A stretch of 64,000 nt of DNA from an uncultured delta proteobacterium. Lineage in GTDB: Bacteria > Desulfobacterota > Syntrophorhabdia > Syntrophorhabdales > WCHB1-27. The position numbers were made by a program. Shown here in pieces: positions 27,001 through 30,000 of this stretch. Position 1 is the stretch's first letter; each line of letters opens with the position of its first letter. The stretch is taken from positions 128,001 through 192,000 of the forward strand of contig CAWEPK010000007.1 in assembly GCA_963810935.1 (NCBI GenBank). The letters are read 5' to 3'.

Positions 27001-30000
27001 GAAAATCCTGCAACTGGAATGCCTCGCCCCGCAGGCCCTTTTCGATGTGGGCGGCGAGGCCGGACTCCCTGGTATAGCGGTTCTTCAGCCAGTTGAAGCC
27101 GATGAGCTTCTCTTCGACCTCGCCCCCGAGCCCGGATAACGCGGCGAGGGCGGGGTTGACGCTCATAAACGTCCCTTCTTTATCGATGGTGAAGATGGCG
27201 ATAGGCGCGTTCTCTATGATGGCCGCGTTAAGGTCGTTGACGCGGGCCAGTTCCATGGTCGCCATCTTCTGGTCGGTTATGTTCTGCACCGTCTCGACGA
27301 CGTACTCGAATTCCGGGCCCGGCCCCTGCTTGAGCGGCGTAGCGGTCAGGTAGTAGTAACGGGTCGGGTGGCCGTCCTGGCCCTCCACGGCCATCTGGAG
27401 CCGCTGGCTCCTGCCTGTCTCGAAGGTTTTCAGTACGGGGCAGTTCTCGCAGGAGCAGTCCCTCCCCAGGACCTCCTTGTAGCACCTCTTCTCGCTTTCC
27501 GCAGGGGAGAAGCCGTCCTTGCGGCGCCACCGGGAAGCCTTCGTATTGAGCCACTGTATGTTGAGGTTCCGGTCGAGTATGTAGATGCCGAGGTCCACCG
27601 AATCGACGATCGATTGGAGGATGCCCAGGCCTGTATAGAGACTAAGATCCATGGTCCTCTCTTTGGGTCCTCTTACGTGATCCCCGTCGCGGGAATATTG
27701 TCAGCGGGAGCGGGACGCGAGCGTGTGAGAATCTTGCGCGCGCCGGGAAAGGCGGACCCGTATATTACCCCTAAATTATATGCGATTCCAGCCCGAAATT
27801 CAAGGCAGGCAGGGGTATTTCCGGGTGAAGAAACAGTGATAAATTGAGGGCGTTTCCGCAGTTTGTTGCGGGTTGCCTTATTGCCGGTCCCGGCGGACAC
27901 GAAAGGTGCGCTTGGCCCGCGCACCGCCTGTCGGCGCAGGCTGGGCGTGGATGTGCACAGTGGTCCATAATGGACCGATTGCATGCACGGTTCGGGTGCA
28001 ATTGCATACATTGTAAAGCTGCGTAACTTCTCAGAAATGGCTATTCGTGAAGGCGGAGCCGTGCAGCCGGGTGGTACATGATGGACCATTCCTGCACCTT
28101 GCAGGTCTCCGTTTTCCATAATGGACGGCCGGTAATTACACTGCGTCCGTGCGGCCCGATGTGTTTTCCATAATGGACAAACGCTGTGGTATAATACTTG
28201 CATCTGTATACAATAAATACCACGCGGGACGCGTGGAAAACGAGAAAGGGACGAGGGGGAATGGTTTACAAAACGATAGTTAAGGAGACGAGCGATGGAT
28301 AAGTTCGAATGGTGGACGGAAGAACAAAAGAAGTTTGCCGATGAAGTGGAAGAATTCGCGGCAAGCATCCTGCCCAGAGACGCAGAGACGCGCTGGACGA
28401 GGGAGTTCCCCTGGGACGTTTTCAGGAAGATAGGCGAGAAGCACTACACGGGCGCGGCAATCCCGAAAGAGTACGGCGGCCTCGGCCTCGGGTGTACGGG
28501 GGCCTGCATCCTGACGGAAGCCCTCGGCGGGATGCCGGGTCTCATGAGGGTGGTGGGCGGCAACATGCTGGGCGGGCTCCATCAGGTTCTGAGCCACGGC
28601 ACGGAGGAGCAGAAAAAGAAGATACTGCCGCGCATCGTCAACGGCGAGATAGGGGCCATCGTCATCACGGAGCCCGTCGTCGGCACGGACGCGGCCAACA
28701 TATCGGCCGAGGCAAAGCTCAAGGGCGGCGCGTATATCCTTAACGGCAAGAAGAGGTTCATAGTGGCTGCGGGCCTCGCAACGCGCTACATGCTCTATGC
28801 GCGGACGAGCGACGACCCGGAAGACATAAAGAAGCACCGCCACCTTACGGCCTTCATCCTCGAGAAGGGCGCGAAGGGCTTCACGGTTGAGAAGATCAAC
28901 GAGCTTATCGGCTTCAGCAACATCCAGAACGGCGTCCTCAATTTCGAGGACGTGGAGATACCCGTCGGGAACAGGATAGGCAAGGAAGGCGAGGGATGGG
29001 CCGTCATGACCAGCGGCCTCAATTTCGAGCGGACGATCATCTCCGCCCAGGCGATGGGCTGGCTCGGCGATCTTTTGAAGAACGCCGTCCCCTATACGCA
29101 GAGGAGGGTCCAGTTCGGCCGTCCCACAATCGATATACCCACGAACCAGTTCAAGATCGCCGACCTGGTCCTGAAGAAAAAGGCGGCGCGGCTCTTCACC
29201 TATCACACTGCCTACCAGTGGGACCTCGGCAAAGACATCACGATAGATTCCAACCTCATTAAGGTGTTCAACCTCGAATGCGCGATGCAGGCGAGCATCG
29301 ATGCGATCCAGCTCGTCGGCGGGGACGGCACCACCATGTTCTACCCGTTCGAGGAGGTCATGAAGGTCGCGAAGGTCGACTCGATCTCCGGCGGTAGCAT
29401 GGAGGCGTGCAGGATGGTCATTTTCCGCACTGCCATGAAGCAGCTCGGCGACCAGATATCCTGGCGGCGCCGGGTGCCTCATCCCAAGCTGGGCGTGCCC
29501 GTGCCCGTGTACGGGGAGACGCCGAAAGAGAAGAACGTGGACGAGGACAAGCTCCTCAAGTTCCTCGCTGAAGACTACAGGGTCAACCCCGGCCTCTATA
29601 TGACGAGGGAAGATATGAAGGTCGGCTTCGAGATGGACGACGCGAAGCTAGACGCGCTGCTCGTTTCTCTGGAGGCGAAGGGCCTGGTCTGGCTCAACAG
29701 GACGAAGAAAGGGATCGAGCTGGCGAAGGCGTCGTACAAGGGCTTGCGCGAGGCATTTCCGAAGGAGCATTACCGCTGGTATCCGGAGTGGATCGATAGA
29801 GGAGAGCAGGAGAGGATTTTCTAACGCCGGCAGGGGCAAGGCGGCGAGAACAGAAGGAGAAGGTTATGGCTAAGATCATCACGGCAGAAGAAGCGGCACA
29901 GCTCATTAAGGATGGGGACGTCCTGGCTGCCGCCACATTCGGCCTGGCCGGCTGGGCGGAAGAAGTCGCCTATGCCGTCCGCGACCGGTATGTGAAAGAA

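Follow-up and report, generated by a model that had tools for sequence, protein, structure and literature searches.

What an acyl-CoA dehydrogenase (ACAD) might do with a winged helix at its C-terminus is the question raised by an open reading frame at 28295..29824 (+) of the window, the 64,000-nucleotide stretch of Syntrophorhabdales DNA analyzed here. An earlier note had read the product as an ACAD without a catalytic glutamate, extended by a MarR-type domain, which pointed to a non-canonical reaction and possibly a DNA-binding second role.

A family of acyl-CoA dehydrogenases with an extended C-terminus

The reading frame itself was confirmed: it encodes a 509-aa ACAD with an extended C-terminus. 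PF02771, PF02770 and PF00441 (Acyl-CoA_dh_N/M/1; the N-terminal helical, middle beta and C-terminal helical domains) all score above cut-off over residues 8-379, with no Pfam match C-terminal of 379. The full-length model (pLDDT 93.7, pTM 0.88) gives TM-scores of 0.93-0.95 against solved ACADs, and its core superposes on isovaleryl-CoA dehydrogenase (IVD, 1ivh) with an rmsd of 1.7 Å over 381 columns; the best sequence matches over the core are MmgC (5lnx), Bcd (5ol2) and 4l1f, at E 1e-61 to 1e-59. The two paralogs noted earlier are present at C11:85714-87240 (64.6%) and C15:65102-66622 (61.0%). A decayed remnant of a family gene, holding the tail part only, lies at C5:23705-23893.

The C-terminal domain is shared widely: its profile matches 367 proteins, the best 120 of which all carry ACAD Pfams, as noted earlier. 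Short matches that appear to be contig-edge or frameshift fragments were left out of the counts. In a quick tree a branch with SH-aLRT 99 separates the family from the other sequences. Members occur in anaerobic archaea and bacteria (Syntrophorhabdales, Desulfobacteraceae, Dehalococcoidia, Bathyarchaeia and Asgard archaea), with up to nine matches per genome. Cluster look-ups of homologs returned generic MAG names only and no cultured strain, the ESM Atlas gave no match at or above 0.9 (best 0.78), and a literature search, with subscription papers mostly outside its reach, found no paper on an ACAD family with a winged-helix tail. The JGI name "AidB-like" on homologs looks like a generic ACAD label. 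These data support a distinct and apparently unstudied ACAD family defined by its conserved C-terminal winged-helix domain.

The putative catalytic glutamate and the active site

Replacement of the active-site YEG motif holds for all three proteins of this genome: loop JK reads Ser365-Gly366-Gly367 in the window enzyme (29387..29395, +), AGG in the C11 paralog and SGG in the C15 paralog. Across 180 family members the loop is AGG in 100, SGG in 42, GGG in 13, xAG in 23 and other in 2; YEG never occurs, and none has a glutamate at position 366, the site of an MCAD/SCAD-type base. The further claim that the family lacks a catalytic glutamate is wrong, and the non-canonical chemistry drawn from base loss is not supported, since the base now lies on helix G, where IVD and LCAD have theirs. 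Residues 222-271 align without gaps to 1ivh 231-280, placing Glu245 of the helix G motif GLNFER (29027..29029, +), the putative catalytic base, on Glu254, which serves as the base in IVD. Glu245 is kept in 120/120 and 180/180 members and in 108 of 109 further proteins; the one that lacks it is a fragment of 250 aa whose alignment is gapped there. Moreover, 41 of 42 ordinary ACADs have a single glutamate between the two sites, either in loop JK or on helix G. Position, invariance and this one-or-other rule led us to reject the absence of a base. Residue 245 also equals the position of N241 in cyclohexenecarboxyl-CoA dehydrogenase (7p98), where D91 is the base and N241 merely fills the glutamate site (PMC9293079); a 1,4-elimination reading was dropped, since the base there is D91 and not residue 241.

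The FAD and CoA motifs are intact in the family (T125, E126, G130, D132, K153, R246, R271 and Q339; motifs TEPxxGS/TD, KxW/FI, helix-G Arg, RxQFG and Q...GG as defined in section 3.7 of PMC11659651). With its helix-G glutamate and small loop-JK residues, the family thus has the IVD/LCAD arrangement, and from this arrangement the sequences lead us to expect a working-type ACAD that carries out ordinary α,β-dehydrogenation. According to PMC12369846, a small loop JK gives space to acyl groups that are branched or bulky, as it does in IVD; a bulky acid of aryl, alicyclic or branched type is the probable substrate. We made no use of Arg85 as a carboxylate anchor, since just 20 of the 39 non-redundant members have it, in an uncertain register. 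Glutaryl-CoA dehydrogenase anchors its substrate carboxylate by an arginine.

Base-free chemistry of the kind carried out by sulfinopropionyl-CoA desulfinase (AGG) or benzylmalonyl-CoA dehydrogenase IaaF (GGG) would account for the SGG, AGG and GGG loops, which match those of such enzymes (PMC8360864, Discussion), and the desulfinase model is the second NCBIfam match. That model (NF042439) scores only 190 against a cut-off of 600, however, the glutamate at the IVD/LCAD site is invariant, and archaeal members precede genes for enoyl-CoA hydratase and for proteins like 3-hydroxyacyl-CoA dehydrogenase, the setting of plain beta-oxidation. We regard base-free chemistry as very improbable.

The operon and its regulator

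The gene neighborhoods agree with the earlier description: two of the three paralogs lie with a CoA transferase, a PcaK-like transporter and a sigma54 activator, and one lies behind a molybdo-hydroxylase. At the window locus, the ACAD gene is followed by a single-chain class I CoA transferase of 541 aa (29866..31491, +; Pfam CoA_trans), with a Glu-Ser-Gly motif at Glu323, which we take to be the catalytic glutamate, and a score against NCBIfam FadX of 443 bits, under the cut-off of 750. The third gene encodes a 457-aa MFS transporter (31481..32854, +) nearest to the aromatic acid:H+ symporters PcaK and MhpT, scoring 324 bits with TIGR00895 (cut-off 419), 274 with PcaK (770) and 263 with MhpT (410); no neighbor of the ACAD reaches the curated cut-off for an aromatic-specific family. 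No leucine-pathway genes are found at the locus. A look-up listed no holder of RNA data for it, which bears neither way on its expression. Among 29 bacterial loci, a dedicated regulator is encoded at 23 or more, a CoA ligase or transferase at 17 (ATP-dependent ligases at 11) and a transporter at 17; an HcrA-like molybdenum enzyme is co-encoded at 10 and a GlcD/GlcF-like flavin/Fe-S oxidoreductase at 9. These contexts support a link of the family to acid uptake and CoA activation.

Divergent from the operon lies a 601-aa sigma54-dependent activator (25847..27652, −) with PAS, AAA+ and Fis-type HTH domains (PAS_4; Sigma54_activat, E 2.6e-66; HTH_8), which we infer regulates the ACAD operon. A −24/−12 promoter-like site with correct GG/GC spacing is found at 28187..28201 (+) by a pattern that has 7 matches in the window against 0.9 expected, and the site is preserved in a same-genus ortholog (L106). 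Three copies of the palindrome TCCATAATGGA, putative activator sites, lie at 27964..27974, 28115..28125 and 28167..28177, the last about 10 bp ahead of the −24 element; 0.03 copies are expected in the window, and this is the sole such cluster in the genome. Variants of TCCATAATGGA are found only beside the same activator type. The triple palindrome was considered as an operator of the enzyme itself and rejected, since of 48 family genes just three have it upstream, each of them beside an activator of the same PAS type. A different dyad is common to five loci with another activator type. The two palindrome types track two activator subtypes about 40% alike, while the ACADs stay alike. A simple dyad count over 31 upstream regions found no common dyad except those linked to activators.

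The operon could also serve the reverse reaction, with the ACAD as an enoyl-CoA reductase (of arylacryloyl-CoA, for example) that provides an electron sink like caffeyl-CoA reductase CarC. It contains no hydratase, dehydrogenase or thiolase gene, and a hydratase is nearby at just 1 of the 29 bacterial loci. CoA transferases can pass CoA from product back to substrate, and the one encoded here would be able to recycle it in this way; the best NCBIfam match of the ACAD is acryloyl-CoA reductase, at 224 bits and under the cut-off of 640. CarC-like enoyl-CoA reductases work with a bifurcating electron-transferring flavoprotein (ETF), whereas ETF genes occur at two family loci and are absent from most. 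With the beta-oxidative archaeal contexts and the ATP-dependent ligases at 11 of 29 loci also against it, reduction seems distinctly unlikely. Transporter, CoA transferase and ACAD would form a self-contained cycle in such a pathway, which is compatible with an accessory tail.

The winged-helix domain

Models, Foldseek and structure comparison place a winged-helix domain at residues 417-487 (29543..29755, +), followed by a conserved aromatic tail, residues 488-509, whose last residue is Phe (29756..29821, +). Modeled in isolation, the C-domain forms three helices and a hairpin (pLDDT 79). The winged-helix part of the earlier assignment therefore stands, while the MarR part does not, and the fold is best called a generic winged helix. 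Foldseek ranks MepR, PefR and ZitR highest, with E values from 2e-3 to 4e-3 and nothing at 1e-3 or lower. In the structure comparison 2obp comes first (Z 10.3, rmsd 2.7, 79 aligned), and the C-domain of the kleisin Scc1 (Z 8.0) draws level with MarR proteins (Z 8.6-8.5). The Scc1 C-domain is a protein-binding winged helix. The MarR family definition includes N- and C-terminal dimerization helices; these are absent from the model, and only 63-76 residues of MarR-type chains of 126-161 residues align to the C-domain. The window domain has no Pfam match up to E 1, and MarR_2 is matched in 1 of 33 members (E 0.0018).

Several features point to a domain that packs against its own enzyme. The full-length model is compact, with its pTM of 0.88 reached though the core makes up just 385 of 509 residues, and the linker and tail, including the last residues, score better in it than in the isolated-domain model. 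Conservation in 39 non-redundant members is highest in the NPGL loop (0.86) and helix 1 (0.69) and falls to 0.45-0.50 in the helix-turn-helix. Covariation, by contrast, was weak (Neff 115) and gave only two stable core-tail pairs, 194-496 and 216-490, at z about 5-7 against a maximum of 4.2-5.4 in shuffles that ignore kinship.

A trigger enzyme, in which the winged helix couples acyl-CoA binding to transcription by binding DNA, either at its own promoter or, as E. coli AidB does, without specificity, would draw on the high place of MarR, HxlR and ArsR-type regulators in the list of structural matches of the tail, on weak Pfam HTH matches in some members and on a basic, fairly conserved wing tip in fused members (R469 82%, K471, K472). 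AidB offers a precedent, its C-terminal DNA-binding region spanning about 100 residues (PMC3236019). The recognition-helix equivalent (residues 448-461; 29636-29677, +) is acidic, however: its exposed charge in fused members is −1.8, negative in 33 of 39, against +1.9 for GntR (16/16 positive) and +1.6 for MarR controls (6/7), together 22 of 23. The domain as a whole is net negative. The basic, Ser/Thr-rich, conserved helix of a DNA reader is thus not found in fused members. With an acidic and variable recognition helix, no dimerization helices, no operator linked to the enzyme rather than the activator in a simple dyad count over 31 upstream regions, and dedicated regulators at the loci, the proposed DNA-binding second role is not borne out; a trigger enzyme appears quite improbable, and the tail looks like a bolted-on enzyme part and not a DNA-binding switch.

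At 18 Asgard loci the domain is encoded by a separate gene directly upstream of a tail-less ACAD of the same family, which keeps the family signature residues (profile match 98.9%). The small gene precedes the enzyme in 18/18, and frameshift artifacts were rejected on that ground. These stand-alone copies head their operons, however, which is where a regulator gene would commonly be found. The recognition helix is positive in 8 of these stand-alone copies, negative in 8 and neutral in 2, which gives the trigger enzyme some further support, but where the helix is basic, the wing is neutral or acidic. From these charges, DNA binding is conceivable for a single clade among the stand-alone Asgard copies, the one whose helices are basic (8/18). 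A PDB sequence search with the stand-alone profile returned repeat-protein noise only.

The ETF-docking face

Bcd of C. difficile docks its ETF through Glu198, Glu210 and Asp345 (PMC5691135). Alignment to 5ol2 shows all three replaced in the window enzyme, by Asn202 (28898..28900, +), Val214 (28934..28936, +; the position of LCAD Glu260) and Phe349 (29339..29341, +). All three acids are missing in 179 of 180 fused members, and at least one is present in 42/42 ordinary ACADs; no acidic contact was found at the LCAD Glu260 or MCAD Glu212 position of the window enzyme. Split forms retain a Glu at position 349. In addition, Asp344 replaces Bcd Tyr340 and an invariant Arg154 stands beside the flavin-bridging Phe155; the triple loss together with these changes is found in 0/42 ordinary ACADs. 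Loss of all three docking acids makes another electron exit possible, and these sequences suggest that electrons may leave the enzyme by a route other than the usual ETF docking.

The tail could instead be passive, stabilizing or oligomer-shaping like the VLCAD extension, with ordinary ETF use through shifted acids. Glu199 is invariant and position 203, Glu203 in the window enzyme, is acidic in 168/180, both adjoin the lost acids and could take over the contact, and the source genome has four ETF pairs. The salt bridge to ETF can shift position, as LCAD and IVD show (PMC11153573). Set against this is the joint loss of three known positions with the Asp344 and Arg154 changes, a pattern that no ordinary ACAD of the 42 shows. 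We give a passive tail substantial but less than even weight.

A model for the family

We favor, as the probable reading, a sigma54-controlled three-gene catabolic module built on a Glu245-based ACAD whose winged helix is an accessory enzyme part. The MFS transporter would import an organic acid, probably aromatic, alicyclic or branched, and the CoA transferase would activate it. Glu245, by its position and conservation, would then take the C2 proton while the C3 hydride passes to FAD, as in IVD and LCAD. The winged helix would pack on the enzyme by a conserved face formed by helix 1, the NPGL loop, the end of the AKATY strand and the aromatic tail. Bacteria and most archaea have it fused to the ACAD, whereas in some Asgard archaea, where a gene of its own encodes it, it would bind as a small subunit. 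It accompanies a remodeled flavin exit face from which the ETF-docking acids have been lost, and, in the least certain step, may stabilize or cover that face in connection with unusual ETF use or another carrier. A stronger version, an ETF-independent ACAD class in which a winged-helix adaptor hands electrons directly to another redox partner, we consider unlikely. Candidate partners for it are the HcrA-like molybdenum enzyme and the GlcD/GlcF-like oxidoreductase.

In syntrophs the electrons of acyl-CoA oxidation have to be driven uphill, and transfer from ACAD to ETF is accepted as the first step. The intact active site, the extra domain and the altered ETF face together make this family a concrete candidate for an alternative electron exit; if the ETF-independent version were true, syntrophic aromatic degraders and Asgard archaea would bypass the usual ETF step, and one more winged helix would be found to serve protein contact. 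Should the tail have a structural role only, less is gained, namely a new subfamily of ACADs with a substrate that points to an undescribed catabolic route. The data also caution against labeling these proteins AidB-like or calling them regulators.

Comparison with known enzymes

The short-chain/butyryl-CoA dehydrogenases MmgC, Bcd and 4l1f have the YEG glutamate and the Bcd-type acids E198, E210 and D345, all missing in the window ACAD. IaaF, sulfinopropionyl-CoA desulfinase and CaiA share with the family an xGG loop without Glu (PMC8360864), and IaaF does not react with ETF; unlike the 509-aa enzyme, all three are subunits of about 380 aa without a tail. The CaiA model falls outside the best five NCBIfam matches and thus below 176 against a cut-off of 540, and the window enzyme, with only a CoA transferase and a transporter, has neither the iaa operon nor the 41-kDa subunit of IaaF.

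The divergent ACADs AidB and Bd2924, like the window enzyme, join an ACAD core to a C-terminal domain (DNA-binding in AidB), and PMC6851490 reports their ETF site as blocked. They keep a loop-JK Trp-Glu (AidB Trp424, PMC3236019; Bd2924 Trp428-Glu429, PMC6851490) and have little dehydrogenase activity, whereas the window ACAD has Ser-Gly. The best 60 of the 106 sequence matches to the window ACAD do not include AidB, and neither do the 50 structural matches listed for the tail, though the two C-terminal domains may share a fold. The tail resembles 2obp, Scc1-C, TubR, Rio2 and the MarR regulators in its three helices and beta-hairpin wing (Z 8-10), and differs from known winged helices in lacking dimerization helices, in its acidic recognition helix and in being fused to or co-translated with one enzyme clade.

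IVD and LCAD share with the family the helix-G catalytic glutamate, the small loop-JK residues and the core fold, the bacterial IVD motif SGLDYER corresponding to SGLNFER in the window ACAD. They keep the Glu260-type ETF contact that is absent in the family, and the window ACAD, at about 30% identity to IVD, is set apart by a 125-residue winged-helix extension and by family-specific surface residues.

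Gene, paralogues and surroundings

The window spans positions 128001–192000 of contig C7. Its ORF at 28295–29824 (+) encodes a 509-aa acyl-CoA dehydrogenase (ACAD) in which residues 8–379 are covered by three ACAD Pfam domains and no Pfam domain lies past residue 379. Two full paralogues (contig C11, 85714–87240, 64.6%; contig C15, 65102–66622, 61.0%) and six ordinary ACADs are encoded elsewhere in the genome; homologues bearing names come from Syntrophorhabdaceae. Next downstream of the window gene are a CoA transferase and an MFS gene resembling aromatic-acid symporters; the window gene is divergent from a PAS-type sigma54 activator. 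For the C15 paralogue, a transporter lies downstream, and the divergent activator there is succeeded by a CoA transferase. A molybdenum enzyme precedes the C11 paralogue, and its best model, 4-hydroxybenzoyl-CoA reductase alpha, reaches 686 bits against a cut-off of 995; bzd-type benzoyl-CoA-reductase-like genes are close to this paralogue. ORF calling, genome comparison, Pfam and neighbour models thus bear out the gene, paralogues and neighbourhoods described in an earlier note.

Several other features were seen at these loci. At C5:23651–23896 lies a decayed remnant of the tail-coding region alone; 123 bp of it share ~75% DNA identity with the window gene, and nothing upstream of it encodes an ACAD core. 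Past the transporter, at window positions 33201–35935 (+), come ORFs of 180, 181 and 489 aa; all three begin like signal peptides and match nothing in Pfam or NCBIfam. Two frameshifts break the sigma54 activator adjoining the C15 paralogue (L003:14817–16444), and the activator at L006 and the ACAD at L106 are likewise split; all may be assembly errors.

Catalytic base

The earlier note held that the enzyme has no catalytic glutamate. The loop JK replacement on which this was based is real, as the alignment places SGG where YEG is expected. In LCAD and IVD, as described in PMC11153573, helix G supplies the catalytic base as a glutamate (Glu254 in IVD). An ungapped alignment of query residues 222–271 with 1ivh residues 231–280 brings Glu245 onto IVD Glu254, the helix-G motif being SGLDYER in bacterial IVDs and SGLNFER in the window ACAD. 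N241 of 7p98, described in PMC9293079 as occupying the place of the catalytic glutamate, falls in the same register. Glu245 and Arg246 are kept in 120/120 close homologues, in 180/180 full-length family members and in 108/109 additional proteins; the set of 180, left after one of 181 aligned sequences was dropped for want of the tail, takes in the query, the 120 close homologues and some duplicate loci. Among 42 aligned control ACADs (37 of 45 tail-less ACAD loci and five ordinary ACADs of the same genome), 18 had only the helix-G glutamate, 23 only the loop-JK glutamate, one neither in register and none both. Since Glu245 is invariant and control ACADs use one site or the other, the “missing” glutamate is, by alignment, the known alternative placement of the base on helix G, and the claim of its absence is refuted.

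Small loop-JK residues in IVD are described as leaving space for a branched acyl group (PMC12369846); by analogy, the substrate here is likely to carry a branch or a ring. SGG, AGG and GGG loop motifs are also recorded for CaiA, desulfinase and IaaF in PMC8360864, and the query scored far under the cut-offs of curated models for enzymes of these types.

Electron exit

In butyryl-CoA dehydrogenase (Bcd), electron-transfer flavoprotein, or ETF, has been described as contacting E198, D345 and E210, with Y340 and F155 around its flavin, and mutation of E198 or D345 as sharply lowering activity (PMC5691135). Counting positions along the query–Bcd sequence alignment, the equivalents of E198, D345, E210 and Y340 in the window ACAD are Asn202, Phe349, Val214 and Asp344, and an invariant Arg154 adjoins Phe155 in the family. 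No acid is present at any of the three contact positions in 179/180 fused members, at least one is present in 42/42 ordinary ACADs, and split forms keep only a Glu at 349. PMC11153573 describes the ETF salt bridge of human ACADs as kept at either of two positions twelve residues apart. Three points call for caution: Glu199 and Glu203, adjacent to the lost acids, may substitute, the genome carries four ETF pairs, and ETF genes occur at two family loci.

The winged-helix tail and its split form

The isolated tail was modelled as three helices plus a hairpin (pLDDT 79), in agreement with the fold proposed earlier. Foldseek gave no match to this model at E 0.001 or better. In a wide structural search 2obp ranked first (Z 10.3, rmsd 2.7, 79 aligned), followed by MarR proteins (Z 8.6–8.5), TubR, HrcA-like 1stz and the kleisin Scc1 C-domain (Z 8.0), tied within one unit. 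The “MarR-type” label therefore holds for the winged-helix fold and fails for MarR membership: 2obp ranks above MarR, and the modelled tail, which lacks MarR dimerisation helices, is a winged helix of generic type.

In the full-length model (pLDDT 93.7, pTM 0.88) the linker and final residues, which come out poorly in the isolated tail, are well modelled, suggesting that the tail holds a fixed position on the ACAD core. Across 312 sequences (Neff 115), covariation picked up credible internal contacts together with two core–tail pairs that were stable, 194–496 and 216–490, both toward the beta domain, a weak signal with a control that ignores kinship.

The tail profile matched in 27/61 related genomes, 6/301 across the phylum, 8/201 Dehalococcoidia, 10/201 Bathyarchaeia (strong matches; 13 weak ones were left uncounted) and 54/201 Promethearchaeota. 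ACAD domains are present in all of the best 120 of 367 longer matching proteins, and the family's ACAD cores fall together on one side of a branch in a quick tree (SH-aLRT 99). The family is strongly expanded in some Asgard genomes (G602, G619, G625 and G643), with 6–9 tail-profile matches each. A member in a Succinivibrio genome (L014:8001–9530), outside the usual range, groups with Dehalococcoidales/Syntrophorhabdales-type sequences.

All 18 short-frame Asgard matches are winged-helix ORFs of 90–120 aa directly before, and on the same strand as, a 410–450-aa ACAD carrying LNIER and the signature residues W6, W7, R154, H183, E199, N202, N212, W235, R270 and D344. A hydratase-like gene follows the pair; Pfam bore out neighbours of hydratase, SCP2 and ligase type for L168 and L155 alone. 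Split and fused forms match by profile at 98.9%. The reversed gene order, with the tail gene before the ACAD, excludes a frameshift. Because stand-alone tail genes are tied to one ACAD clade, their products would fit a subunit of the partner ACAD; the position is also that of a regulator, and 8/18 copies have a basic recognition helix, these with neutral or acidic wings.

Regulation and the DNA-binding question

Upstream of the window gene are a sigma54 promoter-like site (28187–28201) and an 11-bp palindrome present three times (0.03 expected). Variants of the palindrome precede 3/48 family genes, every one with activators 65–96% alike. Five further loci with a second activator type (73–84% alike among themselves, ~40% relative to the first type) have another dyad in common, ~87 bp before the sigma54 site. 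Beyond these activator-linked dyads, a simple dyad count over 31 first-in-operon upstream regions turned up only AT-rich runs as shared. By this comparison the palindromic sites track activator type, not the ACAD. Of the 29 bacterial loci (counted without the duplicates L010 and L032), no fewer than 23 carry a gene for a sigma54 activator, a TetR or a MarR. Elsewhere, two sigma54 promoter-like sites lie 18 bp apart at 59831–59863 (−); the window holds seven such matches against 0.9 expected.

At eight exposed recognition-helix positions, 39 members below 75% identity have a mean charge of −1.8 (33 negative, three positive), as against +1.9 for 16 GntR and +1.6 for seven MarR helices from the same genome and loci. 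Within the tail, helix 1, the NPGL loop, the end of the strand and the aromatic stretch are the conserved parts, and the helix-turn-helix is not among them. A basic wing tip (R469, 82%) counts in favour of DNA binding. With an acidic recognition helix, a more variable helix-turn-helix and palindromes that follow the activator, the DNA-binding second role suggested earlier lacks support.

Neighbours and substrate

Neighbours at the 29 bacterial loci include CoA ligase (11), TRAP (11), an HcrA-like molybdenum enzyme (10), a GlcF-like Fe-S protein (9), an aromatic-acid-type MFS (8) and CoA transferase (7), and point to aromatic or alicyclic acids; the best single guess, itself doubtful, would be aryl-propionate types. 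Archaeal neighbours point to lipid beta-oxidation, so the family probably covers several substrates. The analysis shows the domain layout, the place of the glutamate, the tail fold, the split form, an altered ETF face, and the promoter and palindromes. Beyond these, we propose a model whereby one acid would be taken up, CoA-activated and 2,3-dehydrogenated by the family ACAD, its tail docked on the core and its electrons passing to a putative acceptor.

Some neighbouring genes are unusual in themselves. A trio of GlcD-like, Fe-S and second FAD-binding oxidoreductase genes, fitting no curated family, recurs after the family ACAD in several genomes (L008:10972–15387, L010, L011, L109, L113, L117). 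On C11, HcrA-like molybdenum-enzyme genes occur as three sets in one 35-kb cluster (L001:1954–9869 and L002:2111–10855), together with a quartet resembling bzd-type benzoyl-CoA reductase genes, two ligases and TRAP proteins, a putative aromatic pathway with every score under its curated cut-off. On C15, an HpaB/4-hydroxybutyryl-CoA dehydratase-like gene in this anaerobe (L003:2120–3553; best match HpaB, under cut-off) adjoins ligase, SDR, TRAP and hydratase genes. At C7:7036–9435 (−) (L005:6036–8435), a 799-aa ORF fuses an acyl-CoA ligase to a YEG-type ACAD; the ligase begins in another frame, which makes this a frameshifted gene in the assembly.

Comparison with known systems

An ACAD with a winged helix was not found described in the literature covered, outside which most subscription journals lie. 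AidB, as described in PMC3236019, sets the precedent for a DNA-binding ACAD tail, PMC6851490 describes divergent ACADs with blocked ETF sites, and a winged helix in BamF is reported to interface with another subunit (preprint 10.64898/2026.04.10.717634). With the two most striking claims of the earlier note refuted or unsupported, the testable point of the family is its electron acceptor. The family shares the active-site arrangement of IVD and LCAD and, judged by sequence, would work likewise; it belongs, with that arrangement, to the ACAD superfamily, and is not a MarR, AidB, IaaF or desulfinase.
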